A program made the position numbers and the translations under genes. Positions 133 to 39,372 of a stretch of 64,000 bases of DNA are shown here, piece after piece. Position 1 is the stretch's first letter, and each line of letters begins with the position of its first letter. Source of the DNA: a virus; IMG/VR virus record IMGVR_UViG_3300045988_069061, one strand, 5' to 3'. The notes under the pieces are model-generated. The model saw nothing but the letters and a program-made list of their open reading frames with translations. It was not told the DNA's origin and made no database searches.

Positions 133-2493
133 AATAATAAAAAATTATAGTTTCATAATAAATACCAAAGAATAAGAACGTGGTTCTATTTTCAAGGGTT
201 TATTAGGCCATTCAGAATCTGACAAGGTCTACTCTTTGCTAGTAGCAGAAGATAATGAAGTCCCTTCATCTGTCCACAAAGATATAGAATGGGTATGGCT
301 TCCACCCGTAGCAGTACCTCCCTACGTCTTTATATTAGATACTCCATCTACTGTCCCAGTTTCAGTAGTGATACCTTCTCCGGTTACGGAAGTAACAAAA
401 GTCTTAGAAACTGATTTTATACCCCAGTTATAATCAGAATATTTCAAAGATACAGATAGATCTCCAGAACTTCCCGTAGTTCCAGATAAATTCCCACTTA
501 AGCTGTGAGTATGGGCTTTATGAGGATGACTATGTTTTGGTAAGTAATCCTATGAAAGAATTAATTCATTATTTTCGTCAAGTATGGAGTCATTGTCTCC
601 GACTTCATCTGCTGAGGCAACTGCTTTAATAAATTTTCCCACTAAATTGGGAGTTCCGTTAGTTCCGTCACATATTGCCCATCCGTAAGGAATTTCTGTC
701 CCACTCCACATTAAAATAACTCCAGAAGGAATGAGAAGAGAAGAGTTAGACATTACCCTTAATTTTCTCACTCCTGCTTCACTATATACGTTAACCTATG
801 TAGTCTCATCTGAAGCTAACAAACTTCTAATAATTTCGTCAGGAGTCTGAATCTCTCCAGTCATTGTAGACTAAAATTGGCAATTTTTAAATGTTAAAGA
901 GGAATCCTAGAATAGAGAGGCATTATTTACTACATAATTGAATGTGCAGTTATCCAACATAGAATTAAAAGTAGTATTTGATACATCTTCTTTAAATGTG
1001 CAGTTATCCAACATAGAATTAAAAGTAGTATTTGATACATCTTCTTTAAATGTGCATTCCTATATAACCCCACTACAGACAACCTAATCAAAACTTCCAA
1101 ACATAGTATTATTATTGAAAGTACTATTAATAAATAGAGGATGCCTCTAATCGTAGAAACTATTACCATAACAAGGTGTTTCTAGTATAGCATAGTTAGG
1201 TAAATCCTCTAAGGTCAATACTGTTCCATTATGATTAATTTCTACTCTTATATTAGACAAGTTAATAGTATTATTATAGAAAACATTAGAATTAGTATTG
1301 TCAGACCCTCCGAAAGTATAATTCCAAATCCCATCACGTAGGAACTTTAGGTGTTTAAAGTTATAATTACAAGAATTACCATACTTATCTGTCATTTTTG
1401 TTATTAACCCCAGCGCCTGTACGTTGGTTTCATCAATAGTGTAAGTTTTATCATAAGAAATGTCGTAACTAATAATATAATCTGTGTCTTCCTCCAAAAT
1501 GCATTTATCCTAATAGTATTCATAATTGTTCTTTGCAGTTACTATGAGCGGATGGACATTAGAGGGATTTGATTCTGTTGCATCTTCTGGAAGAATTTCA
1601 GGCTCTGCTAACTCCCAGAAATTTCTGAAATTATAAAGTCTATACTATACGTTAGCATCCATCTTAGCGCTTTGTACTAGACTCCTAAAATCCTCAACGG
1701 ATATATTGATATAGTTTGATGGTAAAGAAGCATCTTCTCTTACTATAATCTTATCTACTTCTAAGACAGACTTATTATCCTAGTTATATAATCTATATCC
1801 AGTATTAGATGTGGCTCCGTAGGAATATAAAGATGTAGAATTCATAACTAAATCACCGTTTACCTATATCTTACCATCCTATAAAGCCAAATAAGACGTA
1901 TTGCCAACCTATAAATCTAAAGAATTAACAGCACGAATAATACTCTCAAACAATTCTATCTCTCCTACAGTGAGTTTCGTAAATTTATCTGTAGAGTCAT
2001 TATTTGACTATATCTTAAATTCGGAAATAGTTCCGTCTTTTATTAAAAATAACTGTCCTGAATCCTTAATAAATACTAGACCAGTTGTAATGTTAGCATT
2101 TTTTGCGTCCTCTAAAGTGTTATAATTAAAGCCTATGTTTATTAGAGCCTGATCCTTCTATTCAGAAGTTAACATCTGTTTTTCTAGAAAAGAAATATAT
2201 TGTTCTCCAGAGCTATTTAATGGTATTTTAGTTCCATCTATAGAAATCCATACTTCGTTGCCTTCTTCAGTAGGTATTAAGTATATTCCATTATCTGAAA
2301 TATCATCGGAACTAGATGCAGTTTTTAATATATTAGTGCTAGAAGAGGCAATTTTACCATTCTTTATAATATCAATAAACTTGCCACCCCACTAAACTTT
2401 TAAATCTCCTTTTGTTTTTATAATAAAATTAGAATCGGTAGAACCAATAGTATTATAGGTTTTACCGAACATATTGGTTTTACCTTCTCCCAT
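133..2493 (-). CDS. tail fibre protein with a phage tail-collar domain; read-through of several in-frame TAG codons
   Basis: Translation from ATG ~2491-2493 (MGEGKTNMFGKTYNTIGS...) runs in one frame through ORF-track fragments 1147..1497 and 550..771. The stops at 1147 and 550 are TAG. The collar-domain motif IPYGWAICDGTNGTPNL is present, followed by a His-rich HSHPHKAHTHS / GGSHTHS segment. The gene ends at TAA near 133. Confidence 0.5.
941..1056 (-). repeat. 54-bp perfect tandem direct repeat, 2.1 copies, in frame inside the tail fibre gene; duplicates an 18-aa segment (CTFKEDVSNTTFNSMLDN)
   Basis: Unit aatgtgcagttatccaacatagaattaaaagtagtatttgatacatcttcttta occurs at 941-994 and 995-1048, with a partial third copy at 1049-1056. 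Confidence 0.85.
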
Positions 2494-2496
2494 ATT

Positions 2497-2898
2497 ATTT
2501 TATAGTCAGTACTTGTCTTCTGTTTCTATTAGAATAACTTATGTGAATCCAATCTAAGTTATGTTCATCTATTAACTAATCGAATGGTAATTTCAATTTT
2601 TGAGCTAAATCAAATAACTTTTTATTTTCCGATTTAGTATCTAAAACTGTACGTATATCGGCAGCCTATCCAGTCATGTGTTGGCTAGTACTAGCTCCTC
2701 CTACAGCCCTATTCAGAGCTGGGCATCTATAACCACTAGTAACAATAATTGGCTTGCCATATGCCTCTCTAAGAGGGTCTAGAACATTTTCTATAAGAGC
2801 TATCAAATTTTGCTCTTCCTCTTTAGAAGGAACATTCTTGATTCCCTTCTACTAAGCAGTAGTGCTTTTCGTTAATTCTTCAATAGTAAAAAATTTCA
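2497..2898 (-). CDS. endolysin, peptidase M15 (VanY / L-Ala-D-Glu peptidase-like); one in-frame TAG
   Basis: Translation MKFFTIEELTKST...PIIVTSGYRCPALNRAVGGASTSQHMTGQAADI... matches the SxHxxGxAxD zinc-peptidase motif of the Peptidase_M15 / DUF882 family. Its stop overlaps the ATG of the downstream fibre gene. Confidence 0.55.
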
Positions 2899-3009
2899 TA
2901 AGATTATATGTTTATGTGTTCACAGTAATATATAATCATAATTACAGATTTATCAAAACAAAAATAGGAGAACTTCCCAACTTAGGGAAATCCTCCTACT
3001 AATTATATA

Positions 3010-3405
3010 TAGTTATCTAATCCAGTTTCTCAACTATGCTTTAAATAACTTTTTTGCTAATTGACCACTTAGATAAGCAGCTTTCTCGGAATATGGGTCA
3101 ATACCAAACTCTTTACATATATGCATTTCAACATGATTCTTTTCATGGTTATAAGTATCTATAAATTCCTCAGCGGAATCAGGTCTATTTATAACTATGA
3201 TGCTTTTGTGTTCTTCTTGGTTAGTAAACGTAAAACCTGAATTTTCGTAATCCTCTATCCTAGAAGCTGCCCTATGTAAAACATCGTCTGGACATCCCAA
3301 ATCCTCTAATCTACTCAAAATGTATTGAACATTGGGATTTTCTACAATTATGCAAACTTCTATATCCCAATCGTATTTCTCAAACAATACTCTGAAATGT
3401 GTCAT
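3010..3405 (-). CDS. hypothetical protein (MTHFRVLFEKYDWDIEV...); TAG read-through at 3034
   Basis: ORF-track fragment 3034..3405 ends at TAG (cta at 3034-36). The frame continues to TAA at ~3010. Confidence 0.4.
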
Positions 3406-3407
3406 AT

Positions 3408-3815
3408 CACATCCTCCCAGTCTACCATAGTTCCGTTAGCTACCATAGTAGCATACCATCTTCTCATAGTAGTACCATCTCCAGCGTCTTCATCGTCTAT
3501 GGTATCTTTAATGTAAAGAGCAAAATGCCTTTCATCTGTTATACTACTTCCGTAATAATCAGCCTTACACATATTGCCAACAAATACATAATCATAGCCA
3601 ACATTATTTTCTAGTTTAATGTTATTCTACGTTAATACCTTATCAATGTATTCTTTGGATACTGGCTCTAGGGATTTTCCTCCCTTCTTCATAAAAGAAA
3701 TAGCGTATGAACACAAAGCCTTATTGAAATGCCAACCGTAGTTTTGTAAGTACTTACGCATATACTTTGGCATATCGTCATACATATCCAAAGCTGCTCT
3801 CATATCAATAGTATC
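3408..3815 (-). CDS. hypothetical protein (MRAALDMYDDMPKYMRKYLQNYGW...); one in-frame TAG; ATGA overlap with the next gene
   Basis: Hand translation of the minus strand. Missed by the ORF track because of the TAG. Confidence 0.3.
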
Positions 3816-3910
3816 TTGGGTAGTCCTCGTCGTCGTAGTCAGAATCTCTCATTCCTCCACGTTTAACTCCGGCTCTTGGTACATTAGGTTTCTTTCTTCC
3901 CATATTAAGT

Positions 3911-4147
3911 TTATTTATCTTCTGTCTAAAAGAAGTTTAAAACAGTGTCAAATACTGTATCCATATAAGTCATAAAGTCATCTCTATTAAGTTCTGCAAC
4001 GCTAAAGTTAATAGACACATTTGAAGCTCCTTCAGCCATATAATAGTTGGCATCTCCAATATGTTCATCACTTAGTTCTCCTGCAGTAAGGAGATTGAAA
4101 TTAATACTAAGTACTCCGTTAACATCCTTACTCACAGTTCCTATCAT
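3911..4147 (-). CDS. hypothetical small protein; TAG read-through at 3926
   Basis: ORF 3926..4147 ends at TAG. The frame continues to TAA at 3911-13. Confidence 0.4.
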
Positions 4148-4216
4148 GTGTTGCCCATTTTCTCTTGTTTCTGAGATTTGGTAGGATTCATTCTACTTTA
4201 CAATTTCCATAAATTA

Positions 4217-4669
4217 TTATTTTACAAATAAGTCAAATACAATTTCCATTAAGTCTGCAGCCTTAACAGAATTTCCGTTAATTTCTACATCATTTCCGGA
4301 ATTAACATCTAGAATATCTGAATACTCTTCCATGGTGATTACATCATCTGGTGTATCTTTAACTTCCTCTAAGCCCTTCTGAATAAGATATTCTTGGTAT
4401 TCAGAATTAGTTTTATCGTTGAGTTCATTGAATCTTGCTTCTTCTTCCAGAGTCCTTTCGGATTTATTAGCTAATTCTCTAAGTTCATCAGATATAATCT
4501 GATTTGTAAATTCTTGAGTATCATCATCGAATTGCTTCTTAATCTTATTATAAGCCATTCTGATACGCATAATCTTTACTTTTAACTCTTTTGGGAGTTC
4601 TTTGTCACCATCTTTAAGAATAATCTTGGTGATTACATTTTGTTTTGTCAATACATCATTTAACGTCAT
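4217..4669 (-). CDS. hypothetical acidic protein (150 aa), no TAG codon, genuine TAA stop
   Basis: Intact ORF-track entry. The stop at 4217-19 is tta on the plus strand, i.e. TAA. Confidence 0.55.
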   Translation of the reverse strand: MTLNDVLTKQNVITKIILKDGDKELPKELKVKIMRIRMAYNKIKKQFDDDTQEFTNQIISDELRELANKSERTLEEEARFNELNDKTNSEYQEYLIQKGLEEVKDTPDDVITMEEYSDILDVNSGNDVEINGNSVKAADLMEIVFDLFVK

Positions 4670-4738
4670 AAATCATTAATTTTTGGTTTATACTAAACTA
4701 AATAAATATAAACTATTTTAAAAGTTAAAATTTATTAA

Positions 4739-7700
4739 TTATTCTCGAGTATTAGTTATGTATGTAAAAGACACTTTATTTGGTAACTAATTTGCTTGGT
4801 AAGAATAAACATATAACGTTGTTCCAGAAACATAAAAAGCGGCCCATCTAAGGGCTGACCCACCACCTTTAGAAGCAGACTATCCAGTTGTATAAACAGC
4901 TGATGGGAGATTAGTTAAAAGGGTAGTTGTTCCCGTAGACCCGTCCCCAACTGAAGACATATTTATAGATACACATACCACCTAACCATATCTAATTACA
5001 TAAATATATCCGCTTATACCAAAAGCGCTAAAATAACGACCACTATTCACAACTTTATAACTGTTGGCTGCATTAGGAATTCCATTATTAATATATATAG
5101 GAGTCGATGAAGATCCTATAGTATTAGTATAGTCGTCAATAGAGTTAGTACCGCTATAATAAGCTAGTTTGCCAGATGCTCCAGAGTTAACTGTAGCATT
5201 TAAGTAATATGTCATAGCAGTAACAGTTCCATTAGTTACATATACTCCTCTATTTGAGGCACCAGCATTACCCTTGGCGAAGTCCGCTAATGATTTGTAG
5301 GAGCCTCCAGCTAACAATACATAGCTATTACTATTTACTGAATTATGATAAAAACCAGCACCTGCTCTAATATATCCAGAAGACCATGAGTTTCCAGTAA
5401 CATGTGATTTATAAGTACCATTATTCGGAGAAGTAGCTCCTACAGTAATTCCCCCATTAGTAACTAAATATCCATCTGTTCTTATCTATCCAGTATTTTG
5501 ATAAACCGATTTACTCCCAAAGGTTCTAATCCAAGTACTGTCGGACATATACCATCCACCACCATAAGTCTGAGAATACCATCCCGTAGATCCAGTACTT
5601 CTAAACCAATTTGAAGTATAGGCAGTACTAAACTTAGGTGAAGTACTTGTACTAGAAGAAGTAGATACTGCTATGTTAGCCCAATATCTTGTTCCAGTCC
5701 AGAATCCACTATCATTTGTTAAATGACTAGTGTGAGTCGGTATATTTACTGTAACAGCAGCACTACCATTATATGTTTTAGAAGAAAATTTTCCTGCAGA
5801 AAATGTTAGGGTATTAGCAACCTTTGCAGCCGTATTAACTATAGTTATTCCAGTCATAGAAACATACCTATCAGAAGGAAGAGACTGTGCTGTAGTAGTA
5901 TTACCAGTATAAAATGTTCCTAGAGTAGTAGCCTCAGTATCAGTTCTCCATGTCTTAGCTAAAACTCTGTAATTATAAACACTATACTAGCTACTTGGGT
6001 TACACCATAACTGACATAGACCACTACTATTATTGTAATATAATCTAAACCTATCTGTAGGAATATTTCCGACTACTTCAGCCAAGTAAGCACTTATATT
6101 TTTAGCAGTCCCAGTTCCATTCTATCTTAACTTAAAAGATATTATTCCCCACTACTAATTATAGGCTGAATGTACAAGAAGATTAATATCAACATCATTA
6201 TACTAATTATTTAATGTTATATCCCATACCTTTCTCCAGTAAGAGGAAAGTCCGGCACTACTAGTAACATATCCATCTTTTAGTATATAATTTAGATGCC
6301 AACCATCTAGCATATCGGCATTTAAATTAGAAACTACAGTAGTAGAAGAAACCGTAAACGGAGATGTTCCAGTTGCTACAGTAAATTTCTACTAAGTGCT
6401 AAAGGTTTTGATTCCACTAACAGTTTGATTAGTGGTTAAAGTTACATACCTTCCGTCTCCATACCTCTGATAATTATAACTATCTAGAATTAATCTCCAA
6501 CCTCCTGCAAATGTTCCTGTAGCTACCGCCCCATTGACAATCTATCTCATATATAATCCATGAGTAGTTCCCATATTATTAGGTCCAGATAGAATATCTG
6601 TATAGTATGTAGAACCCCAATACATCCTCAAGCACTAACCATTTTTATAGACTGCATCCTAACTATCAGAGGGCATTCCCCACTATCCTCCAGCAGCAGT
6701 TCCTCCTACTACAAAGCTTCCAGAGGAGTAATAAGTTAACCCAGTATTCTAAACCGAAGAAGATGAGTTAATTCTTGAAGATGCAGTAGCGTATGGAACT
6801 GTAAGATTATTAACCGTTCCATTCTTAGTCCAAGTTACATAATTTCCGTTTGTACCTAAAGCAGTAACGAAATTGGCAGGATTTACATAAGAAGTATAAT
6901 TCAACTCGTCTAGTATTCTAACCCACTTTCCATTTGCCAAGGCTCCAGCAGCTACTCTTTTATAATATAAGCTGTTAACATTAAATGGGACAGCTAAATC
7001 AGTATAATATCCAGAGCTATTTGCATGATTAAATCGTAGAATATGCCACCAAGTAGTTGTGGGAGTATTATTGGCTTTAACAGCAGTTCCAGCAGTTCCA
7101 TCTATGTTGAAATAGTTTAATCCATTCCATCCATAATCCATTCTACTATTAGATGCCAAATACTATGCAGTTGTAGCTGTAGCAGCATTACCAGTAATTG
7201 AGATTCCCCAAGTACCACTTGCACCTTCACCAGTTTTAGTCACAGTATAATTAGTATAATTTCTGTGAGTTAATACTCTAGTCCAAGCGGAAGTATAACC
7301 ACTCCCGTTGCTTGTATAGAATAACATTTCGTTAACAGCAGGATTACTTACTCCTGAGTTATTATATGGAGTTATATATAACTACGTCTTGTTTGTATCA
7401 CTAGCTCCCCACTAGAATATAGCTGTTCCTGCCAATGGAATATTTACACCAGTATCTGTAGATACATATCCATTATTAGCATAAACCCAAGAACCTCGTT
7501 CAGCAAATGCTACAAATGCTTTATTAACAAATGTAGAAGAATATGTATCAGCTGTATAAGCCTTTCCAGAAGAGCCATGATTAGCAATTTTATTACCTCC
7601 TACATATCTTCCATCAATAGAGCCAAACTAGTAGGTAGTAGTGATAGTTACATTCTAACTACCATTAACAGAAGCACTACCAGTAACTGCACCAGATAGA

Positions 7701-9007
7701 CTAATAGTTCGTGCAGTACCCCAATAAGCTGTTACTATATTAGTAGTTCCATTAAATGACGTTCCATTGATAGTTCTTTCAGTCTATAGTTTAGTTGCTG
7801 TTGCCGCATTGCCTGTAATAGAAACTCCAAGAGTTGTACTACAAGCTGTTGGTGTACCTGCATTTAGGTATATAGGAAGGGTTGCAGAACCTTTTGTAGC
7901 CGTTCCAATCTTTAAAACTATTCCAGTATAGTTAGCACTATCTACAATAGTTTTCCATGATTTTGTATTCAAAATTGAGTCTGTACTATTTCTCCAATAC
8001 AAACTTCCAGAATACATAGAGTAGAACTACATATATCTGGTACTTCCACTTCCAGTATTAAACTATACTAGGTGTCCAGAAGCTCCTGTATACTTTACAT
8101 TCCAGCTACCACATAAATTATTATTACTTGCTAATTCGGTAGCTGTAGGAACAGAACTTGCTATGAACTAATCTCCTCTAGCTCTAAAGAATGAAGTTTC
8201 ATGTAACCCGTCTAATAAGTCTGAATTAAGGTTAGTAACCACAGTTGTGCTAGTTACCTTTAATGGAGAGGTACCTGTAGCAATAGTAGATATTAACTGA
8301 GTTCCTGTTATAGCAGCTTTTACTATTAGAGGTCCAGTCATAGTATCTCCAGTTACATTCACATATCTCTCATCGGATTCAGTTTTAGTATAGTAATTCT
8401 CAGCTAGTGCGACTGATTTACCATCTAATTTTAAAACCCCTTTACTTATAAACAGACCTACCGTTCCACCCCAAGGACTAGTTGCTGTAGGATACGGAAG
8501 TATGCAGATAGAGCCATTTCCATCTCCTCCAGTATTATGCTGTCCTATAGAAGGGTCGTAGGTATTCCTAGATGCACCATTTTTATACCATTTCAGTATA
8601 GTAGTATAGTCACTAGTATCATTCTAGTTCTATATAATACTAGCATTACTAACAAATCTAACACTAGTAGAAAAAGTCTTTGCTCCTGTAATACTTTGAG
8701 TAGTGTCAAGAGTTACAAACTTATTATCTAAAATTGAATAAAACTAAGTCTTACTCACTCTTCTAATAAAGGTATCAGAAGTATTTCTTACATATACGGA
8801 ACCAATATCTGTTAACGCTTCATCAGAAATAGCTGAGTTAAAATAAGTAGCGTAAATATGCTAGCTGGCGTTTCGTTGAACTAGGGTGCTGGCTTTGCTT
8901 GAAGCAGAGTACTCTAAGTCTCCTCCGTTGCTAAGAAGGACTTGTGTAGCGCTTCCTTGATATGTGGTTCCTATAAGTTTTGCATATCCATCTTTAACTT
9001 TTATCAT
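4739..9007 (-). CDS. very long tail fibre protein (~1420 aa) with phage tail-fibre repeat motifs; many in-frame TAG codons
   Basis: ORF-track fragments 8168..8362, 7784..8017, 6749..7159, 5486..5857 and 4982..5317 are all in one frame, and each ends at TAG. N-terminus from ATG ~9005-9007 reads MIKVKDGYAKLIGTTYQGSATQVLLSNGGDLEYS... Motifs present: GDTMTGPL, ITGNAATATKL, QSITGAKTF. Frame tracing ends at TAA ~4739-41. Confidence 0.5.
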
Positions 9008-10281
9008 ATTATCCTCTTAAATTTAAATGTATAAGTGTAAGCAGCGCCTATGCCAGCACTTGCACCTATCTATAATTTTAAAACTTCAGAACTTTGCATA
9101 ACAGTTCTTAAGTAAATTGTTTTTCCATAAGCATGACCAGAACGGTGAAGGATAATTTCATCGGTGTCTGTATCATTAGTACCATCTCTATACCAACTCA
9201 TTACACCAGAATTATAGCAATGCCACATAGCTCCTGTATTATCGTTAGCACTAACTTGTACCTATACTATATAAGTTCCATTAGCAGGAAGGTTAGTAGA
9301 TGTTATTCCCGTATCCATCCATGCTTGTGTAACATTTAACGATTTAGTAATGGTTGTGAGATTGTTAGATAATTCTTCTGTTTTTAACATAAAGTCGGAT
9401 ACAGCTTTATGTCCTCCTCCACCCAACAATACATAAGAGTCAGAAGAATTAGTCTTTTTATAACCTGCTGCTGTAACATTAACTGTGAATGTCTTAGCCC
9501 CAGTTATAGTTTGTGCAGTATTTAATGTAACGTAATTAGCTAATGATTGATGTTCTGTAAGAACTGGTTTTCCACCTGAGTACAATTTATTAGCCCATAG
9601 ACTACCTGTACTAGGCTGAGCATATATTGTTGTAGTTACATAAACTTGCTAAGTAACACTAGCACCTAAATCAGCAGTGGTACTTGTGTTAGTATAACCT
9701 AAAGCAAGAGGTCTATAATTTGAGGTAGTGGTAGCAGACTACAATACTTTCTAATCAGTATTCATGTCTGTATACCATCTAACCCAAGTTTTCCAAGCAG
9801 AAGAATCATGGTACCTAAACCATATCAGACCATTAGAAGTAATTAACTTCTAATAACGATAACCACTAGCATTTCGACCAACATATAATTCATATGCATC
9901 TACTCCACTAGGTTTGTTCGTTGTGGTATTACCACCGCCAGCATAGTACCATCTCCCTTCGTCTAAGTAATCATCTAGATCTTGATCAGTTAATTGGGTA
10001 TAAATGAATGTCACAGCCGCAGCCGCAGGTATGGACCAGGTGCCATCTTCCCTTAAAAATCTAACATTTGTTGCAGTATATGAAGGGACAGGCACCAATC
10101 CGTTATAACCTCCACTTCCACTAGAAGTATGTTTTTTAAATACTGAGTAAGTAGTATCTGTCCCTTTAAACTTTATCCCTCTAGTAAAGATATTTAAGCC
10201 CTTTAAGTCAAAGGTTACATCATTATTATTGGGAGCAGTCGTTAAAGCTGCTGCCGTAGTAGGATTGTATGCTATCTTCAT
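9004..10281 (-). CDS. tail fibre protein (~425 aa); TAG read-through
   Basis: Fragments 9850..10281 and 9262..9585 are in the same frame and joined through TAG codons. The TITGAKTF fibre motif is present. TGA at 9004-06 overlaps the ATG of the downstream fibre gene (ATGA). Confidence 0.5.
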
Positions 10282-10284
10282 AGA

Positions 10285-11460: not shown

Positions 11461-11466
11461 ATTATA

Positions 11467-11886: not shown

Positions 11887-11889
11887 TTA

Positions 11890-12573: not shown

Positions 12574-12576
12574 AAT

Positions 12577-22219: not shown

Positions 22220-22297
22220 TACTTTTTTGCCAATCAACGGTTTTTAGAAGTAATATCCTACGATTTATCATCTAAATCGATTTTTATATTGTATATC

Positions 22298-24115: not shown

Positions 24116-24120
24116 ATCAT

Positions 24121-24317: not shown

Positions 24318-24329
24318 ATTGTTTAAAAT

Positions 24330-26161: not shown

Positions 26162-26164
26162 TAT

Positions 26165-27735: not shown

Positions 27736-27892
27736 TCTAGTTTAATAATTGCTATTTAATAAATTCGTGATTATCTAGTCTTACAGGTAGGTTAATAAAA
27801 CAAATTAGATTAAGAATATCTTGATAATCTGGTTTATATCCCTTTTTGAGTTTTCTTAGAAAATCCTCATACCTTTTAATAGCCTTTCTCTT

Positions 27893-28478: not shown

Positions 28479-28646
28479 GGTAGCACTCTCACTATACTTA
28501 TAGGAGTCGTAAGAAGTTACTACCTCTACATCTTCATCAATATACTAGCCATATTCTTTTGAGAAATCTTCTATCAGTATTTCCCCATTAATTTGGGTAT
28601 GTATATCAATACTAAATTCCATATTGCAATAATATTAAGTGTTAGG

Positions 28647-29343: not shown

Positions 29344-29364
29344 ACAATTGTTCCAGTTGCCATA

Positions 29365-31536
29365 TTAATGTATTTGTCTTATTTTGTCATTATATGGATT
29401 TCCATCATGAAGCTAAGCCAACTCTATTTCAGTTCTTTTTTCTTCAATATCCATTTGTCTATCTTTATAAGTAGAATCAGACTGAGCTTTAAGCCAGTTA
29501 ACTTTATATTCTAACTGCATCTTCTACTATTCTAATCCCAGTCTCTATTCATCTAAGCTTTCAATCTTTTGCTGAGCTTTCTATAATTCTTGCTATAACT
29601 ACTGAGCCTATTGAGAAGTTTCTTCTAATTTTTCTTGTAGTTGCTGAAGCTGATTATTTTCCTCTTTGCGAACTTGAACAGCTTTCTTAACCTTATATTT
29701 AAGGTCTGTCAGACTCTTAGATGTAAGAGCCTCAAAAATAATATCTGGATCCATCTGTTGACTTTTTACGAACTCTGGAATGATTGCTTTTATAGTCTAT
29801 AAATCTTCCATCACTTCTGAACTAGCAGTAATATGAATATCGTAGTCAGTAACAGTAAAATACTCAGGAAGTGCGGTGAATATCTGTTGATATTTATCCC
29901 CAAGTATAATAGTTCCAGTTAATCCTTTCTTATAAGTAACTTTAGCCTAATTAAGACTATCTAGTAGTATCTCGCAGGTTATTAAATCCATCTGCTAAAA
30001 ATAGTGCTTAGTTACTATATACGAGTTAGCTACTCCCTACTTAATATTAGTAACTGCATCTCTAGTTTCTATACCGTTAAGTCGTTCCCTAAATACTCCA
30101 GTTATTGATGATGTAGTTTGTTCTACTGATTGAATAGCTAGTTCAATAGCCTATACAGCCTATGCTTTTAAGGTATCATCAAATCCGTTATATATCTAGT
30201 TTGGAGCTTGCTGTCCGTCATTCCTACCTTCTTGGCTTGAGTCTATCCACATGATACCACCTTTTTTATAAGCTAACCATTTTTGTACTCGTTCTGGCCA
30301 TTTAACTCCTAAGTTGGTAGGCAACAGAGACATATCCATAATAACTCCAGCAGTACCACTATTAGCTATTAGATTATCTCTATAATAGTTTAATAAGTCG
30401 TATCTATCCTACAGATGTGCACATTTTAATATAAGAGAATAAGGCTACTAAGAGCGATTTAAGAAATATACTCCATTTACCGATAAAGAACAGAAGTTGG
30501 GATTATCTTTAGACCTCATAACAGTCTTGTCTAATCCTCTAAGAATATATATCTCTTCTCCTATTCTGATAGTATTGTATCTCTACATCACAAAATCATC
30601 ATCTGTTTCAATCCATTCAACATCATAGACTGGGATTAACTAGAACCTATGAGCACTATATTCATTGTCTGGATAGCCGGGAATGGTTTCATGATTCTAA
30701 TCTTCATTTACTACTGTACAAGTATCTCCATATACTCTTCTATAAACAGCAGCTGAATCATCAGCTCGCCATTCATCTTTTAGTCTTCTTAAATCTTCTC
30801 TAGATATTTCTTTGCCATATTTAGCTAAAATCTAACTCTTACTCATCCACTTTCTTACTACAACTCTATATGAGTTCCTTACATATGGAGATTCTGGATT
30901 TCTATCAACAAATGTATTAAGTGGGTTTAATACCTCTATTTCAATATTAGTTCCAGAAGCCGATGATTTCACTCTAAAGAATGTATAACCAGTAATTAAT
31001 AAGTCTGTTAGTAACTAACGTAACTTAGTAATTAAATCGGTTTCTCTGGATTGCATAATATAATGTACTATATTCTAAGCTGCAATTTCATATTGAGAAA
31101 TAAAGGATTGGTCAATATCCTATATAATTTTATCTAACTAAGTCTTTACAGCTTTATCAGTAATATCCTTGCCATCAATAAACTTAAGAATTGAATTACT
31201 TAAATGGTCTTTCAAAAACTTTACTATTCCCTTGGTTATTTCTAGCTATTTTTCTCTTGTTATATTACTGATAGTATCTGAATCTTTGCAAGAAATTTTC
31301 GGAAGTATAGGAGTTCCTAAATATTCTCCAACTAGAGCATCTACGTGTTTCTTTAATAAAGGCGTAAACTCTACCGAAGTGGGGCTACCTATTCCGAAGT
31401 TTTCTTCCAGATAACGGAACTATTCAGGATCTCTTTTACCATTATAATAATTATAAGCTTTCTGTAACTCATACTTATCATATACAAGTTCCGCAATAGC
31501 CTCGTTTGTCTTGTCTATCAATTCCTTCTCTTTCAT
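29365..31536 (-). CDS. putative portal protein (~724 aa); many in-frame TAGs
   Basis: Continuous minus-strand frame from ATG ~31534-36 (MKEKELIDKTNEAIAELVYDKYELQKAYNYYNGKRDPEQFRYLEENFG...) to TAA ~29365. Its size and its position directly after the terminase genes suggest a portal. No single motif was confirmed. Confidence 0.45.
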
Positions 31537-31939
31537 AACATAAATTATGTTGTTCTGGAGGAAGTTTAGTAGCGTTATAATACTTAACTCTTTGTAACTT
31601 CCTACTTCTTAATTCTTCCTTAATAAATGGCAGAAATTCTTCGTCTGGTAAATCTGCTATTATTACTAATGGCATTTCTGACCTATCAAAGTTAAAAGAG
31701 ACTTTATACCCAACTGGGTCTAAACTCTCAATATCTAGTCCGCCTATATACTCCATTTTGTACAAGTCCCTCATATATTCTAGGATCACTTGTTTCAACT
31801 CTGTATGGGTCATCATATTCGTTTCTTTGCATATTAAGTTCAGGAGTTTTCTTAGTTGGAATAACTCCAAATCTTTTAATTCCTCTCTCGTCGTAATAGT
31901 AACCAAGATCTTGGAACTATTCAACTTCTTTCTCCACAA
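31478..31939 (-). CDS. ORF overlapping the 3' end of TerL and the 5' end of the portal gene: either a separate small gene from an internal Met, or a +1 frameshift extension of TerL
   Basis: ORF-track entry, 153 aa, genuine TGA stop at 31478-80. It is +1 relative to the TerL frame and overlaps TerL by ~210 nt. Confidence 0.3.
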   Translation of the reverse strand: MWRKKLNSSKILVTITTREELKDLELFQLRKLLNLICKETNMMTHTELKQVILEYMRDLYKMEYIGGLDIESLDPVGYKVSFNFDRSEMPLVIIADLPDEEFLPFIKEELRSRKLQRVKYYNATKLPPEQHNLCYEREGIDRQDKRGYCGTCI

Positions 31940-34093
31940 GTACGGGCTGTCTTCCTGATAGCTCTTGGTCTGCTAACTCAGTCATACCTACAGCGGCTAC
32001 AATATCATACTTACCCTTATTTTCATCATTATATGCAGTGAACTATTCTAGCATTTCTTCGAACCATATAGTATGGCAATAGTCTTCTATAAAGGCGGCT
32101 GTTAAATCAGTATGCTATTCGATTATAGTTTTTGTAGCAGGAGTTCCATACTATTTAGTAGTTCCATTTCTAACGTCAGTTAGAGTAGCTCTTGGGCGCT
32201 TCATAAAATAGTTAAGGCATCCTTTTTCTCTAGCCCAAGTAACCATACCCATACGAGTAGCTTCTATATTTATTTTACAATTATAATAGCGAGCTAAACA
32301 CATAGCTATTTTATAGGCTTCTCTGATGTCTCCAGGTCTATCCTTGTACATAGCAACATACTGAGGGTCATTCATACCAAACGCACGTTTCTTAATCATT
32401 ATGCAGAAATCAGACGGGTCTCTGGTTTCCTTAGAAGTCTAATTCGCTCCAATATCAATACCGTCTATACCTGCTACGTATAAGTCTCGCATCTCTTTAT
32501 AAACTGGAACTTCAAAATCCTAGCCGTTATCTTCTGCCTCCTATCTAAGCTTTTCCATTTGTTCTTTATATAAGTCAGACCATATTGGATGCTCTAGAAT
32601 TTTTACTTTACCATTGCTATTAGGAATCCATTTAAAACCATCAATGTTATCCTAAGTATGTTTATTATTTTTGTAAAAATAATCAATATAACCACATTCG
32701 GGTCTTGGACCAATTTGTTTAAGTCTTATATTAGCTATCTATTCGGCAACTAAAATTTTATTAAACTTATTAACACCTTCTAGATTAAATGCTTCTTCTG
32801 CATTCCAACAACGTTCAGCACATTTCTTTAGGTAGTCTTCTGGTACAGCTAACAGATTATCTCGCTCCTCCTATAAGAATTTCTTATATTCCACAGTATT
32901 ACATACTCCTCTGTGGTCCATAAATTCTGGATTCAAAGATTGTGTAAAGTATGGAATAAAGAATCCACTCTCTATAGTAGTCCCATCCTAAGTCCAATTA
33001 TGTCTAAATGGAAGAATCTTATATGCTCTTGGATTATAGTAAATCTTTTTTAAGCCCTCTAGAGGAGCACCCATATCACCGCCAGTACCTCCAAACAACA
33101 TTGTTCCACGAGGCATACCTTGAACTTCACAAAGTTCTTGACCTTGTACCACAGCGGTATCAAGTCCAGGCCAGGAACCAGCTTCATCATATATTAATAA
33201 ATCTACACGGTCTCCACGAATGTTAGATGGTTTAGCTCCGTTAATTGCTACAACCTCAGATTTAAATCCTACGTCTTCAAACTAACCATTTATTTTGATT
33301 TGTTTACCTGATTTCTTTCTCAAATCCTGGTCAATAAGTCGCAATTTAAAAAATCCTCCTCCAGTACAGGTATTTAAGAATGTAAGAGCATTATCAAACT
33401 TACTAAAGGTACCCTTAAGGAAGGTATCATTAAAGCAAGTAATCATAACCCTACTTCTTCTAATAACAGAGTACATACGAGCAGAAAGAGAGGCGTTTAT
33501 TTCAGAGAATCCAATAGAACGAGCTTTCATTAAAGCTGCGTGCTTGTGTAGCACTCTAGCCATCTATAGATAATGAAAGAACATATAATGTGATGCAAAG
33601 AATATTGGGAAGTCATTATTAGTACCCTCACCAGAGGCTTTCTGCTAGTCAATAGTAGGTAACTAATAGAAATTTAAGAAGAAGTAATTATCTCCAGTAA
33701 TGGTGTATCCATTAACTGTCATTCCATACTTACATCTTCTATATTGCTCTTTCCAAAATTCGTTGTACCGCTTACTATCTCTAAGGTAGGGACAGTATTG
33801 ACCAGTTCGTTTATATACTTCCCTAGTCTCGGTAAACCAATCTGGATTAAAGTCCAATCCATGAGTTTCGTCAATAGGTCTGTATCCAGTTATTTCATAA
33901 GATAAGGTAGGGTCAAATACTTCTATTTTATCTCCTATTTTAACATCCCAATAGTCAGAATTTCTGACCCTTTCCTCTCTTATTTTCTATACTAATTCTC
34001 TAGCTTCTTTAGCATCCTCTTTCTATTCTTTTTCTCTTACCTAATCTACAATATTCTATATTTCTTCAGGTAATATCTTTTTTCTTGGCATAA
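31728..34093 (-). CDS. terL: terminase large subunit (TerL); TAG read-through
   Basis: Fragments 33663..33857, 33282..33563 and 32151..32399 are all in one frame, each ending in TAG. Coordinate-checked translation includes VDLLIYDEAGSWPGL (Walker B, DEAG) and MLFGGTGGDMGAPLEGL. N-terminus at ATG ~34091-93 (MPRKKILPEEI...). The frame ends at TGA 31728-30. Confidence 0.7.
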
Positions 34094-34095
34094 TT

Positions 34096-34647
34096 AAAAG
34101 TCTCCTGGGTCAAAACCATCCACAGCTCCAGCTCTAACAGTAGATTGTTCAGTAAGTTCTTTCTTAACCTAGTCTTCTAGTGTTATGAGTTCTTCATGAA
34201 CTTTGTGAAGAGTAGCCATTTCCTTCATTACTTTTTCAGCCTGGAATACTGGCTTGCCGTTATTATCACGCTCATTTAAATCTACAATAGTTTCGAAATA
34301 ATCAATAAACTAGTCTGCAGCTCTTTTAGCTGCTTCTAGTAATTTTATTGACTTGTTTGAATCTTGTAACGCTCTGTATTTCCTACAAGCTTCTCTAAAT
34401 ATAGGGTCATTAAATTCTGACTCTGTCAATCCAGAATCACTAATAGCTTCGTCATGTCGTTCATGTTCCGAATACTAACTGTACGGACTTTTCCAGTCTA
34501 TAGCTAAATAAATGTAAGATAGTTCTCTAGTAGCTCTATCCTTTTCTGCAGATTTATCCCTCTAGATTAAAGCCTTAAATTCCTTAACTAGTAATATCTC
34601 TGGTTCATTTATTTCTAGCTATTTAGTTAAAGTGTTATAGTTAAATA
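34096..34647 (-). CDS. candidate terminase small subunit or other small DNA-packaging protein (~183 aa); in-frame TAGs
   Basis: Sits immediately upstream of TerL with TAA and ATG nearly abutting (MIMNVFNYNTLTKQLEINEPEILLVKEFKALIQRDKSAEKDRATREL...). Assigned by position only. Confidence 0.3.
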
Positions 34648-34688
34648 CATTCATAATCATTAATCATTATCATACACATTAGATAATC

Positions 34689-36005
34689 TTATTATTTCTT
34701 TTTCATTTTGGAACCGCACTTATTGACTTTCATTTTTGAGCCACAAGCGTCTTTCTTAGCATATTGTTTTCTGTCAGGAACCCATTTTCCTCCCTGGAAA
34801 TTACCCTTATGTCCTTTATTGGCCATAGTTTCCTAATCATTGTATTTATTGATTGATATAGAATCTCTTGAGGCTTCGTCTCTAGCAGATTTCATATCTT
34901 TCTTATACTAAGCTCTTCCTGCCTTAAATTTATCAACTTCATTAGCTTTCTTAGTAACTTTAGTTCCTTTTTGTGCTTTCTGGCAAGCTTTACAGATTCT
35001 ACCGCCTTGCTTAAAATATACAAGCTCTTCTCCTTCTGGACATACTCCTTTTAGCTTCTTATAATACTCAAGCTTAGCTCCAAGCCTAGCCATTACTCCT
35101 CCTTGCATTTTCTGCATAAATTCCTGATACTTAGCTTTAATGCCGTCTTCACCTAATTGTTCAGCATAAGCTTGTAAATCCTGTTCAGACTATATCTGAA
35201 CTCCCTATGACTGCGCATCCTATATTAAATATGCCACAAACGCTTTTTGTAATTCTTGTTGATTATTCATTGTTCCTCCTTGTTGAAATTTAGTTGTATG
35301 TCCCGGAGATAATGTTAATGGTTTAGCTTCTGATTTTCTAGAATTCCATACATCTCCAAGATAATTAAATAATCTCTATAACCCCCTATGTATCCCAAAA
35401 TCTCCTCCTTGTACTGTCTTTCCCATAGTATATCTACTGATAGTGGCCTGTACAGGATTTACTTTAGGCTTACTTGAAGGCTACTCGGCTCTTGTCTATT
35501 CACTAGCTGGCTAACTGCCTCCTGTAATAGTTGGTATTCCTCTACCCCAAGTAGTTCCTTTTGTTGTAGCAATTAGGTCTGGAGCTTCTATACTAATCTA
35601 AGTATCTGACTAAGGAATCTGAATGGTAGAAGGTTGTTTAGGCTTACTTGAAGGCTGTCCTAAGTCTGTAGTATATACAGAATTTCCCCACATAAACTGT
35701 TTTAGTCCTCTCTCTCTAGCAGCCCTAAAAGCTGTCTTAAAATCTTTAACACCTCTTAAATCATCCTAAGCTATTTCAGCAGTAGGAAGAGGTTCTAATC
35801 TTGTGGGTAATGAAGGCATTTCTGGAGCATCAAAATATGCCTCTTGTAACTTAGGCATTTTCTATTGTGCGGTTCTTCTAATAATGTCTGGATTAGTTGC
35901 CCAAGTCTAATGCAACTACCTCAAGGTTCTCTCATCTAAGTCCGCATCTCCGTAAATAATTTTGATATTACGCATCAATTCAGGGTCAAACTACACTTTA
36001 GCCAT
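34689..36005 (-). CDS. Lys/Gln-rich hypothetical protein with PSSKPK repeats and two C-terminal CxxC pairs; several in-frame TAGs
   Basis: Fragment 34908..35117 shares a frame with ATG ~36003-05 (MAKVQFDPELMRNIKIIYGDADLDER...). TAG codons fall in a Gln-rich context (QDAQSQGVQIQSEQDLQAYAEQ), consistent with TAG decoded as Gln. Ends MKVNKCGSKMKKK then TAA ~34689. Confidence 0.35.
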
Positions 36006-36007
36006 TA

Positions 36008-36229
36008 CTCTTCTATTTTAATTAAATCCTTAGTATTAAACACTGCTTCCTACATAAGTCCGGAATCAGTAAACCATCTACATCTTAATCCTCGTAATCC
36101 TTGGTTATCTTTAAATAAAGCTGCTTCTCTTCTTAGAACAAGCATAACTGGAGAATGCATTACTTTACACTACCGTAAAGTAACACAATCCCCAGGCTTA
36201 AAATAAACTTTTTCATCAATTGTTTCCAT
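36008..36229 (-). CDS. small hypothetical protein (METIDEKVYFKPGDCVTLRQCKVMHSPV...); two in-frame TAGs
   Basis: Hand translation. TAATG overlap with the downstream gene. Confidence 0.3.
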
Positions 36230-36818
36230 ACTTCAATTCGTTTCTTCTTTCAGTTAGATTTTCGTTAACTACAGCCATAATTCTGTTCTCATTAACTACA
36301 ACAAATCCAAACTTGTAGAACGGAACCATGCACTCGCTAGCTATTGTATAGAATACTATATCTCCAGGTTTTAGGAACTCACACTTGTGCCCGACCTCAA
36401 TAACAGTACCCACTTTAATAAATTGTTGTTCTTCGTCTATTTCTCCTGTTTCATTAGATTTATATGTTGGAGCAAATCCACCTAAGTCTGTAATTAATCC
36501 ACTCTTAGTAGTTTTAATTTTTTGAAACGGATTTTGTTCGAAAGGTTTAATTAATGCATACCCATACATAGGCATAATTTCTACACCATTCATATCCTCA
36601 GATAATGATTTGGCGTAAGATTCTAAAGCTGCATTATGTTTAGAGAATTTATCTTCTAATTCATCTACTGCTGTATTGAATCTTTCCTGTTTTTCTCTTA
36701 ATAAAGTTTTATCTGCAGCTTCTCCATTTACTATAAGGTGCTGTCCTGTACCTTCCATACCAGTTATAGCTAGTGCTAGTTTCTCATTACTGTTCAATTC
36801 TGTTCTTAAAGTTTCCAT
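36216..36818 (-). CDS. hypothetical protein (200 aa), no TAG codon
   Basis: Intact ORF-track entry. The stop is TGA. Confidence 0.5.
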   Translation of the reverse strand: METLRTELNSNEKLALAITGMEGTGQHLIVNGEAADKTLLREKQERFNTAVDELEDKFSKHNAALESYAKSLSEDMNGVEIMPMYGYALIKPFEQNPFQKIKTTKSGLITDLGGFAPTYKSNETGEIDEEQQFIKVGTVIEVGHKCEFLKPGDIVFYTIASECMVPFYKFGFVVVNENRIMAVVNENLTERRNELKYGNN

Positions 36819-36826
36819 AATTCATT

Positions 36827-37084
36827 TTACCATTTACATAAATCACAATGTTCATCTTCTATTCTAGTTTTGTTCTCTAGTATACAACCACACTCCTCAC
36901 ATACTTCTCCAAATGAAGTCTGTAATTTATGAGGACAAGTATTACAAATATTTAATCTTGTGGTTGCTAAATCTTGATTAATTCCAAATATATGGAAATA
37001 TATACCCTTCAATATTACTAAAGGTTTAGTAAATATTGCTTTAATCCATTTCTTTGACATCTTTTCAGTAGGTTCTTGAGTCAT
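36827..37084 (-). CDS. Cys-rich small protein (zinc-ribbon-like), paralogue of 37136..37351
   Basis: Shared C-terminal pattern: CGCILENKTRIEDEHCDLCKW here, CGCLLELKIPNEKKHCPAKKW in the neighbour. Confidence 0.45.
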   Translation of the reverse strand: MTQEPTEKMSKKWIKAIFTKPLVILKGIYFHIFGINQDLATTRLNICNTCPHKLQTSFGEVCEECGCILENKTRIEDEHCDLCKW

Positions 37085-37135
37085 AAGCCTTAGTAGGGTT
37101 AGCCATTACTGGAGTCCCATATAGTAATAAATTAT

Positions 37136-37351
37136 TTACCATTTCTTCGCAGGACAATGCTTCTTCTCATTAGGTATCTTTAATTCCAGTAGACATCCGC
37201 ATCCTTTTATATATCCTTCTTTTGGACCAATACTTATGTCATTGTTTTCTGGATTTAAATACAACTGTCCATTACATATTGCATCTTCTTGATTACATAT
37301 TGGACAGCGTCTACATATTTTCCATCTTTCTTCTATTTCCTCTAGTGTCAT
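37136..37351 (-). CDS. Cys-rich small protein (zinc-ribbon-like), paralogue of 36827..37084
   Basis: CRRCPICNQ...CNGQ...CGCLLE...HCPAKKW. Confidence 0.45.
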   Translation of the reverse strand: MTLEEIEERWKICRRCPICNQEDAICNGQLYLNPENNDISIGPKEGYIKGCGCLLELKIPNEKKHCPAKKW

Positions 37352-37353
37352 AA

Positions 37354-38268
37354 TTAATATTCAATACGTTGACGTTTCTTTTTATTTTCTGCCAATATAG
37401 ATTCTTTCTTGTAAAAAGAAAGCATTCTTATTACTTCATCTTTTAAATATGGTAAGTGATATACTGTCATGTTGTCACTGTGGTCGAAGTGTACTAAAAC
37501 TAAGTCTTCAATTTCAAATTCTGGGTTTTTCTTCTGAATCATCCAGGCGTAAGTACTTAGCTGAAGGGTATAATGCCAATAATTAACATCATCTAAATTA
37601 TTTAGAGGATACTTCATCTTAACTGATGTCTTAGTTTTAGAATTAAAGAAGCTCTTTGTTTCTATTTTTTTATTAGTCTTCCAGTCACCAATAATTATCT
37701 TATTACCTCTTTTAACTAATAAGTCAATTTGTCCAGCTATTCTTAGTTTTCCGTCCTCAGATACTCTAGAGATTAGATACTCAGGATATACCCCATTCTC
37801 CAAATCTAGATTGTTATAGTCTTTTATACACTCAAACTTACCACCTATTTGATATTTACTTAGGTCTATATCCTTCTTCTTTTTGTAAAAAGAGTTTTCC
37901 AAATCTGCATGGATTCTAGTTCCTCTCTCGCAAGAGTTTCTGTTCTCCATATCCCATGCATCTAAGATAGCTTGTTGTTCTTTATTAAACTCGTCTTCTG
38001 TAATGTTATGAAGTTCAAGTAGAACTTTGTCAAATTTCTTAGTATTCAGCAGAGATTTTTTCTCGATAGCCCAATCTTCTTTAGGTAGAAGTTTCTCTAG
38101 TGCTTTATAAGCTGACCAGAACTCTTTATCAAAGGGTTGGGTGAAAGAATGAATTAAAGTCGTTACAGATATAAATTTCTGTTCTGGCTTTGTAACATCA
38201 TAATAAATATGAGCTTCCTCTTCGAAAGCTATGTTCCCATTTTGTTTTGTAATTTTACTTTTGTCCAT
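37354..38268 (-). CDS. PD-(D/E)xK family nuclease (lambda-Exo / YqaJ / Cas4-like recombination exonuclease)
   Basis: Motifs IAGQIDLLV (D), IIIGDWKT (E/D-x-K) and YTLQLSTYAWM (QxxxY), in the arrangement typical of RecB-family nucleases. Confidence 0.55.
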   Translation of the reverse strand: MDKSKITKQNGNIAFEEEAHIYYDVTKPEQKFISVTTLIHSFTQPFDKEFWSAYKALEKLLPKEDWAIEKKSLLNTKKFDKVLLELHNITEDEFNKEQQAILDAWDMENRNSCERGTRIHADLENSFYKKKKDIDLSKYQIGGKFECIKDYNNLDLENGVYPEYLISRVSEDGKLRIAGQIDLLVKRGNKIIIGDWKTNKKIETKSFFNSKTKTSVKMKYPLNNLDDVNYWHYTLQLSTYAWMIQKKNPEFEIEDLVLVHFDHSDNMTVYHLPYLKDEVIRMLSFYKKESILAENKKKRQRIEY

Positions 38269-38382
38269 TAGTCATAATTCATTTAATCATTTATCACATT
38301 TATCTATATTTATTTGATACTTTTCAAGTATATTAATATTCTTTGTAAGATACAAATCAATAAATAATACATTATATTAAAA

Positions 38383-38724
38383 ATGTCTAATATGACAAAA
38401 ATGGTAACATTTGGATGTCCAATTTTTAAAAACGGGTCAGGTATTCATATTAAAGAGAAAAACAAAGGTAAATTTACTGCCTCTGCTAAGGCTGCAGGAT
38501 AGTCTGTACAGGAACATGCTAAATCTGTACTAAACAATCCTAATGCTACTCCTCTTCAGAAGAAGCGTGCTAACTTTGCTAGAAACGCGGCTAAATGGAA
38601 ACACGAAGATGGAGCTAAGATACATAAACCAAGTGGACATAGATCTATTCTAGATAATGGATGGATTCCTACTACTAGATTAAAGAAAGGAAATTATGGA
38701 TTAATTAAAACAAGAAAGCAATGA
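38383..38724 (+). CDS. small basic protein with one in-frame TAG at 38500-38502
   Basis: ATG 38383 (MSNMTKMVTFGCPIFKNGSGIHIKEKNKGKFTASAKAAG-Q-SVQEHAKSVLNNPNATPLQKKRANFARNAAKW...). Frame verified by coordinates. Absent from the ORF track. Confidence 0.5.
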
Positions 38725-38791
38725 ACGCTGTAGTTAAATTAATTAAAGAATTTATACTTAAGATATATCTTTATTTACTATTTATATTTAA

Positions 38792-38983
38792 TAAGTAATA
38801 TGGACTATAATAGAGCAACTCTTTATGCGGCTACTGGTCGTACTTTATTACTCCCTGGCTGGAAAGGGTATTTTTATTGGGACTATACTAAGAATGAATT
38901 AAATTTTAGAAATGGAGACTATCATTTAGATAACAAATAGCTCAAGGAGAAAGGAGTTATGGAACGTAATGATTGGTATTATA
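38792..38983 (+). CDS. small hypothetical protein with an in-frame TAG (MDYNRATLYAATGRTLLLPGWKGYFYWDY...)
   Basis: 64 codons, verified by coordinates. TGA overlaps the next ATG (ATGA). Confidence 0.45.
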
Positions 38984-39372
38984 TAATATGATAATTAAAA
39001 ATAATATTATACCGTTTGGAGGTTATAAAGTAATTAATCTGTTTGGATTAATATTTACTAAGTCGGATTTGACTGATGAGGATAAGAATCACGAGAATAT
39101 CCATTCAGTATAGATTTTAGAATGTGCAATAGCGTTTGCAATACTTATATCTATATTATTTGGATTAGAATGGGTATGGTTAGCTATTCCATCTTTCTAT
39201 ATCTGGTATGGATTAGAGTATTTAATTATACGACTATTAAGACTTAAAGATTCTCAAAATGATTGCTACAGAGATGTAAGCTTTGAAGAAGAAGCTTATA
39301 TGAATGAAGACAATTTACAGTATCTAGAAGGATAGAGAAAGATGTTTTCATGGATAAAATATCTAAAAGTTA
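38980..39372 (+). CDS. small membrane protein with two in-frame TAGs (39103, 39325)
   Basis: ATG 38980, TAA 39370-72. Hydrophobic core ILECAIAFAILISILFGLEWVWLAIPSFYIWYGLEYLIIRLL. Confidence 0.45.

Follow-up and report, generated by a model that had tools for sequence, protein, structure and literature searches.

Late genes with TAG as a glutamine codon, TAG-free genes and a glutamine-type CUA tRNA in a probable deep-branching crAss-like gut phage

The 64,000-nt stretch of viral DNA analysed here (IMG/VR record IMGVR_UViG_3300045988_069061; this whole stretch is termed the window) contains two gene sets that follow different coding rules. In the late genes, TAG is a sense codon and the majority codon for glutamine (Gln), whereas the other set is free of TAG and is translatable by an unmodified standard-code host. 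It is very likely that the window represents about one third of a tailed gut phage of about 185 kb, belonging to a deep crAss-like lineage most like the 'Zeta' group, in which two coding regimes coexist and a phage-encoded Gln-type transfer RNA (tRNA) with anticodon CUA serves the late genes. This phenomenon has already been described and experimentally validated in related phages. The recoding is real, and an earlier note on this DNA, which had proposed genome-wide reassignment of TAG to Gln, read it correctly except for the term 'genome-wide'.

The recoded late block and its assigned genes are located as follows.

145..36229, minus strand: late block (virion, tail and lysis functions), 30 tightly packed genes that are open only when TAG is read as sense.
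145..2493, minus strand: tail fibre, 782 aa, 18 TAG (phrog_1800, phrog_2097).
2495..2899, minus strand: endolysin, 134 aa, 4 TAG (phrog_894, E 2.2e-38, matched in one stretch, residues 2-129).
4739..9007, minus strand: protein with fibre-like repeats, 1422 aa, 29 TAG.
13664..20179, minus strand: giant tail-associated protein, 2171 aa, 41 TAG; weaker tail-related matches occur elsewhere in the block too.
20706..21980, minus strand: reverse transcriptase of the type found in diversity-generating retroelements (DGRs), 424 aa, 4 TAG (phrog_1423, E 8.9e-112).
22298..24115, minus strand: tail protein, 605 aa, 6 TAG (phrog_5302, E 1e-79); its C-terminus is the DGR variable region.
29365..31536, minus strand: portal protein, 723 aa, 28 TAG (phrog_6547, E 9.1e-42).
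31728..34091, minus strand: large terminase TerL, 787 aa, 19 TAG (phrog_6681, E 2.3e-60).

The stops that fragment this block under the standard code are of one type. All 20 fragment-ending stops listed in the earlier note are CTA on the plus strand, i.e., TAG on the coding minus strand, and all seven terminators that it listed are TTA or TCA on the plus strand, i.e., TAA or TGA, each being the end of a merged open reading frame (ORF; merged ORFs are frames stopped solely by TAA and TGA). No TAA or TGA was found among the stops inside the late genes: the 30 genes comprise 11,843 codons with 263 in-frame TAG, 0 TAA and 0 TGA, and terminate in TAA (20 genes) or TGA (10 genes). At least one TAG is present in 29 of the 30, the exception being the gene at 4217-4669. 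TAG (263) exceeds CAA (177) and CAG (72) and makes up 51% of the late-gene Gln codons. A Gln-rich TAG context quoted in the earlier note was located in the gene at 34692-36005 (LIXDAQSXGVQIXSEQ). In the late genes, the bases before and after TAG are the same as those around CAA, CAG and all codons, revealing no context bias; TAG is spread evenly across gene deciles, and the first TAG falls earlier than the uniform expectation in 18 of 29 genes, which gives no positional signal. The absence of neighbour-base bias and the even spread suggest that TAG behaves as an ordinary sense codon rather than as a programmed read-through site.

Coding density points to the same codon. Within 1-39372, the share covered by ORFs of 100 aa or more is 25% under the standard code, 94% when TAG is read through, 27% when TGA is and 52% when TAA is. 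On the minus strand at 145-36229, coverage by ORFs of at least 50 aa rises from 39.3% under the standard code to 98.7% with TAG read through, and the controls with TGA or TAA read through reach 41% and 55%, respectively. In 30 sequences simulated with a first-order Markov model that matched the composition and dinucleotide make-up of the late block, reading through TAG gave a mean coverage of 22% and a maximum of 29%; the longest simulated ORF had at most 157 codons, as against 2171 in the real sequence. The joining of fragments into single genes is also borne out by homology: a single match of TerL to its PHROG profile (residues 92-711) extends across most of the TAG codons in this gene, profile matches span TAG sites in TerL, portal, endolysin and reverse transcriptase, and full-length homologues exist. 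Under the standard code, annotation thus misses or breaks up some 60% of the late module, with terminase, portal, fibres, endolysin and DGR among the genes affected, and any annotation pipeline needs to read TAG as Gln for this contig.

Outside the late module, which comprises the structural and lysis genes, only a few neighbouring genes are recoded. About one third of the window is TAG-free and readable under the standard code, and the claim of genome-wide recoding is therefore wrong. The TAG-free sets are as follows.

36216..38268, minus strand: four genes without TAG that adjoin the late block on its upstream side (200, 85, 71 and 304 aa).
39932..40633, minus strand: three TAG-free genes immediately downstream of the suppressor tRNA, of which all distinct orthologues are TAG-free.
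42249..63089, plus strand: standard-code-compatible block of 27 ORFs (4,016 codons, 0 TAG), which carries the tRNA array and a transfer-messenger RNA (tmRNA).
52114-54087, plus strand: SPFH/Band-7 protein, 657 aa, with 39 CAA/CAG and 0 TAG.
56406-57590, plus strand: AAA ATPase.

The products of 36216..38268 are a GroES-like protein, two small Cys-rich proteins and an exonuclease (PHROG matches phrog_3188 and phrog_298); standard-code coverage of this segment is 97%, and 84-100% of the distinct orthologues are TAG-free. In the plus-strand block, standard-code ORFs cover 71% and RNA genes about 9%. If TAG were as frequent as in the late genes, the 34 TAG-free ORFs (4,914 codons) would contain about 109, i.e., about 20 in the minus-strand genes and about 89 in the plus-strand genes; none is observed. 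As these ORFs were picked for being open under the standard code, their orthologues serve as an independent check: the orthologues of TAG-free genes are almost all TAG-free across related contigs, and TAG is present in all orthologues of portal, terminase and the late genes next to them, indicating that the partition is conserved. The portal gene has 19-40 TAG in its 35 distinct orthologues, and 45 of 47 relatives with an uninterrupted TerL frame have 12-31 TAG each in TerL.

The residue inserted at TAG was assessed from codons in the DNA of relatives, because database proteins may already be table-15 translations. In a codon alignment of 44 distinct TerL sequences, Gln codons occur in 44 of 63 TAG columns, CAA being the commonest partner. 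Over 11 genes in the contigs of relatives, 172 of 296 variable TAG columns have a Gln partner (CAA in 150 columns and CAG in 96), in agreement with the amino-acid preference that the earlier note had predicted. Two TerL relatives with 49-50% identity lack TAG altogether; this pair has Gln at 8-10 of the TAG columns, i.e., about 15-17%, against a background Gln content of about 3%. Density, codon partners, homology continuity and a CUA tRNA of Gln type all support a table-15-like reading of TAG as Gln.

That tRNA and the genes next to it are located as follows.

40650..40722, minus strand: amber suppressor tRNA, 73 nt, anticodon CUA in the loop CUCUAAA (ARAGORN, and Rfam with 66.3 bits).
40728..41337, minus strand: two TAG-containing genes (1 and 5 TAG) upstream of the suppressor tRNA.

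The suppressor tRNA has body features of tRNA-Gln (U1:A72, G10 and A73). Among annotated tRNAs, the CUA tRNAs of Crassvirales genomes are closest to it (82-86% identity); identity to a genuine tRNA-Gln(CUG), that of Mycobacterium phage Wildcat, is 83%. When about 186,000 genomes of bacteria and archaea were scanned with its first 18 nt, the tRNAs retrieved were 17 tRNA-Gln(UUG), 10 tRNA-Gln(CUG), nine CUA tRNAs and nothing else; all 27 non-suppressor matches to this 5' end are thus tRNA-Gln, come mostly from Bacteroidales and differ little from the phage tRNA in the acceptor, D and T arms. Judged from its body, the suppressor is a Bacteroidales-type tRNA-Gln(CUG) with a G36-to-A change and an anticodon arm remodelled to CUCUAAA, a loop known from E. 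coli amber suppressors of high efficiency. Of 55 related loci, 49 carry this tRNA; in the window, the next ORF begins about 17 nt after it.

These features are consistent with a switch of code during infection. The TAG-free genes would be translated first by the standard-code host. The phage CUA tRNA, presumably charged with Gln by the host glutaminyl-tRNA synthetase (GlnRS), would then accumulate until late mRNAs become translatable, and the switch would act as a timer that delays virion and lysis proteins early in infection. Competition by release factor 1 (RF1) would also have to be largely removed, by means outside what the window shows. The giant tail-associated gene at 13664..20179 is the most demanding ORF for suppression: it has 41 TAG, and a read-through of 95% per codon would bring only about 12% of ribosomes to its end, and one of 90% about 1%. 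Suppression is therefore expected to be near complete, implying that RF1 competition is almost abolished.

The same partition might exist for a simpler reason. Genes expressed before the tRNA cannot tolerate TAG, and elsewhere TAG might have spread by drift through C-to-T changes in CAG, in which case TAG would still be Gln and the partition would have no regulatory role. The lack of positional or context bias in the late genes and the free exchange of TAG with CAG and CAA among close relatives are both in keeping with drift. Drift would dispute only the adaptive interpretation, not the decoding; TAG accounts for just over half of late-gene Gln codons even though an AT-rich genome would favour CAA, and the endolysin and packaging genes are among the most densely recoded, which fits the published lysis-timing hypothesis. 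A partition without regulatory role is thus considered unlikely, but it is the best supported of the alternatives to a code-switch timer.

A host that natively reads TAG as sense, with the phage mirroring the host code and no switch during infection, is very improbable. A large conserved gene set avoids TAG fully, the phage brings its own suppressor tRNA, the closest bacterial tRNA bodies are Bacteroidales tRNA-Gln with normal anticodons, and surveys predict standard-code hosts for recoded crAss-like phages (bioRxiv 10.1101/2021.08.26.457843).

Decoding of TAG as Glu, Lys, Tyr, Trp, Ser, Leu or pyrrolysine is equally hard to credit. ARAGORN labels the tRNA 'Pyl', but this label is given to any CUA anticodon. 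After Gln, the next commonest partners in the 296 columns are Lys (82 columns) and Glu (76), which is the usual substitution profile of Gln itself, and BLOSUM62 scores summed over TAG columns are highest for Gln (813), followed by Glu (497) and Lys (338). Residues one step from TAG are rare among the partners (Tyr in 12 columns, Trp in five), whereas the top partner, CAA, is a two-step neighbour. In addition, the tRNA has no long variable arm, which excludes the bacterial Ser, Leu and Tyr types, and its body is that of tRNA-Gln in every non-suppressor match from bacterial genomes or metagenome-assembled genomes (MAGs). The idea that the interruptions are sequencing or assembly errors, pseudogenes or intron-split genes is already refuted, because, even though insertions and inteins do occur in TerL of relatives, all 263 interruptions are one codon type in frame, the pattern recurs in more than 50 independently assembled contigs, and homology is unbroken over the TAG sites.

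Several points weigh against the code-switch interpretation. Late-gene Gln content rises from 2.1% to 4.3% once TAG is counted, somewhat above the 2.9-3.2% of TAG-free genes. Charging by GlnRS is suggested by the tRNA body, and position 36, where the base has changed, is among the known identity elements for GlnRS. TAG is present in the two genes at 40728-41337, which directly precede the suppressor tRNA on its own strand; the tRNA is therefore not in a purely standard-code transcription unit. The order of expression is deduced, 'early' and 'late' being labels given by analogy. Metaproteomics has confirmed that other crAss-like phages insert Gln at TAG (Peters et al., 2022, PMC9523058); for the present phage, this assignment is deduced from the sequence.

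Near-complete suppression is not explained by the window proteins that were scanned, and the window leaves out about two thirds of the genome. A Pfam scan of ten window proteins, nine of them from the TAG-free block, detected an SPFH domain and an AAA ATPase, and found neither a release factor nor an aminoacyl-tRNA synthetase. The required suppression of about 95-98% per codon would not be expected of a lone supE-like tRNA competing with RF1, which raises the speculative and rather improbable idea that the clade encodes an unrecognised means of removing RF1 competition among those of its TAG-free genes that lack an assigned function, with the tmRNA and a second tRNA (see below) possibly belonging to a larger code-switch toolkit.

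Genomes of Zeta crAss-like phages are 145-192 kb and contain many tRNAs, including suppressors, and frequent introns and inteins (PMC7886860); in crAss-like phages, reassignment is mostly confined to putative late genes (Yutin et al., 2021, PMC7886860). The phage analysed here is similar in that most long contigs of its relatives are 178-193 kb, many tRNAs and a suppressor are present, and recoding is limited to late genes. Its TerL is distantly related to that of Crassvirales, and TerL of some relatives contains inteins or insertions. Unlike in the Zeta group, the major capsid protein (MCP) and IHF, which are crAss signature genes, were not recognised in PHROG scans of the late proteins and may lie outside the window, and TerL of the window is uninterrupted and has no intein. 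The phage is therefore filed as 'crAss-like, Zeta-like' and not as a proven member.

In crAss-like phages, recoding of late genes only and suppressor tRNAs have been described (PMC7886860; Borges et al., bioRxiv 10.1101/2021.08.26.457843). The combination known from code-15 gut phages, namely TAG as Gln, a suppressor tRNA, recoded structural and lysis genes and a second gene set in standard code (PMC9523058; Borges et al.), is found here, and at the sequence level no defining feature of a code-15 phage is missing. One difference is that the 'code-change module' of RF2 and aminoacyl-tRNA synthetase did not appear in the ten proteins scanned with Pfam. Theta (HDV-like) ribozymes are attached to suppressor tRNAs of some phages (Kienbeck et al., 2024, PMC10879173). 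Those phages resemble this one in being gut phages with tRNA-Sup(CUA) and recoded late genes, whereas no HDV-like or theta-type ribozyme was detected beside the tRNA of this phage by Rfam at a permissive threshold.

Conversion of tRNA-Gln to a suppressor also has a bacterial parallel. In E. coli supE (glnV44), the anticodon of a tRNA-Gln is changed from CUG to CUA, and the tRNA is charged by GlnRS and inserts Gln at UAG; this suppressor is weak and coexists with RF1. The phage tRNA shares the single anticodon change on a tRNA-Gln body. Unlike supE, it serves ORFs with up to 41 TAG, and its anticodon stem and loop have also been remodelled to CUCUAAA.

The window therefore provides a clean and strongly conserved example of late genes written in a code that the host would be unable to read until the phage tRNA is supplied. 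It fits the published idea of recoding as a lysis timer and adds no new principle. The clade is well sampled and is suited to studying how a Gln tRNA becomes a suppressor, as CUG, CUA and UUA versions occur in close relatives, and how near-complete suppression arises. The more unusual material is peripheral, namely the conserved tmRNA, the DGR within the recoded block and the second tRNA that has CUG, CUA or UUA anticodons in relatives.

The host is probably a member of the Bacteroidales, as hinted by the Bacteroidales-like tRNA-Gln body and by a near-identical contig binned with a 'Bacteroides sp.' MAG. A megablast search of 20000-44000 against an annotated phage collection gave no match, and no close annotated relative was found there. 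Many close relatives are present in a large protein database and in IMG/VR, most of the long relative contigs being 178-193 kb. The best annotated matches of TerL are Crassvirales TerL proteins (25-28% identity over about 80% of the protein), and identity to the unannotated gut phage records MT835539 and MT835470 is 44-45%.

Two of the relatives are phage genomes binned with bacteria and are 96-99.6% identical to the window: DXLM01000001.1 (L194, 186,052 bp), from the 'Bacteroides sp.' MAG, which is 99% identical over the parts compared, and CALEBD010000406.1 (L198, 153,247 bp), filed in a 'Clostridium sp.' MAG. The IMG/VR record IMGVR_UViG_3300045988_060496 is a further near-identical relative. 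CUA tRNAs found in MAGs of Segatella copri, Sphaerochaeta and Acholeplasmataceae are probably also on phage contigs binned with bacteria. TerL is interrupted in some relatives: a 1131-aa homologue (P0003) has intein and homing-endonuclease Pfam domains, and the TerL loci L030, L044, L049 and L051 contain insertions of 0.3-1.2 kb, some of which break the frame, suggesting introns.

Between TerL and portal, a TAG-free ORF at 31478-31939 (minus strand) shares about 210 nt with the 3' end of TerL, where it is read in another frame, and about 60 nt with the start of portal. It is kept in 36 related loci, and its start is uncertain.

The DGR is complete and lies within the recoded block, with the reverse transcriptase at 20706-21980, the template repeat (TR) at 22122-22219 and the variable repeat (VR) at 22323-22420, all on the minus strand. 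Of 22 mismatches between TR and VR, 21 are at template adenines, and the VR corresponds to codons 566-598 of the 605-aa tail protein.

A few TAG-containing genes lie on the plus strand. The earlier note had placed three such genes at 38383-39372; all three exist (38383-38724, 38800-38991 and 38973-39380), with the correction that the last ends at 39380. They contain 1, 1 and 2 in-frame TAG, respectively, and TAG-containing orthologues occur in 23-38 related loci. The third is assigned as follows.

38973-39380, plus strand: third plus-strand TAG gene, PHROG 'protease' family (phrog_15610, E 9.5e-32).

A read-through ORF at 58234-58938 (6 TAG) was rejected as over-extended, since the standard-code ORFs 58092-58475 and 58597-58938 account for the region. 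Five plus-strand ORFs (47228-47506, 55199-55528, 55679-56098, 59143-59379 and 60824-61156) end at TAG under the standard code and have an in-frame TAA or TGA 4-27 codons beyond, by which their proteins would be lengthened if suppression were on. These might be real genes, or their TAG codons might be real terminators.

The window contains 18 tRNA genes (ARAGORN and Rfam). Four tRNA-like genes are detected by Rfam and missed by ARAGORN; these read UUG, UAU, UGC and GAU, and no suppressor anticodon other than that of the CUA tRNA was found in the window. An ordinary tRNA-Gln and a tRNA remnant are located as follows.

54637..54700, plus strand: tRNA-Gln(UUG), ordinary, with a shortened D arm (4-nt D region) and loop UUUUGGU (Rfam 47.8 bits).
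43453..43502, plus strand: decayed remnant of a second suppressor-type tRNA, 50 nt, loop CUUUAAA, intact in many relatives.

The tRNA with a UAU anticodon (55584-55660, plus strand) has an 18-nt insertion in the variable region. The remaining two, at 61207-61279 and 63704-63775 (plus strand), are tRNA-like genes: a tRNA-Ala(UGC) with a mismatched acceptor stem and a tRNA with a GAU anticodon (Ile).

The remnant has lost its D arm and part of its T arm. The intact second tRNA of relatives is 71 nt long and Gln-like (U1:A72, A73), e.g., at 5067-5137 in L058, 4150-4220 in L061 and 4570-4640 in L112. Over 55 loci, its anticodon is CUA in 19, UUA (ochre type) in 10, CUG (Gln) in one and UAA in one, and the tRNA is malformed in three and absent in 21. 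No in-frame TAA or TGA was found in TerL of three relatives with the UUA tRNA (L011, L040 and L021).

The phage-encoded tmRNA (63132-63680, plus strand) is matched by Rfam with 72.7 bits (gathering score 47) and is missed by ARAGORN. One enlarged loop has 185 nt where the model has 13, and the tag seems to read AEIAPVRMAA, followed by TAA. The tmRNA is conserved: at least 30 related loci carry it with 77-99% identity, and 17 of these yielded an identical tag and stop.

Immediately upstream of the tRNA remnant, 43258-43432 (plus strand) matches the RAGATH-14 family with 100.5 bits (E 7e-18), under the gathering score of 149.1. This match lies in a segment at 41.5-44.9 kb that does not align to the close relative L058, and no homologue of it was found in the 55 related loci. 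A weak hammerhead-like match at 44843-44922 (plus strand; RAGATH-1-hammerhead, 30.3 bits, E 0.028; Hammerhead_3, E 0.27) has the core boxes CUGAUGA and GAAA.

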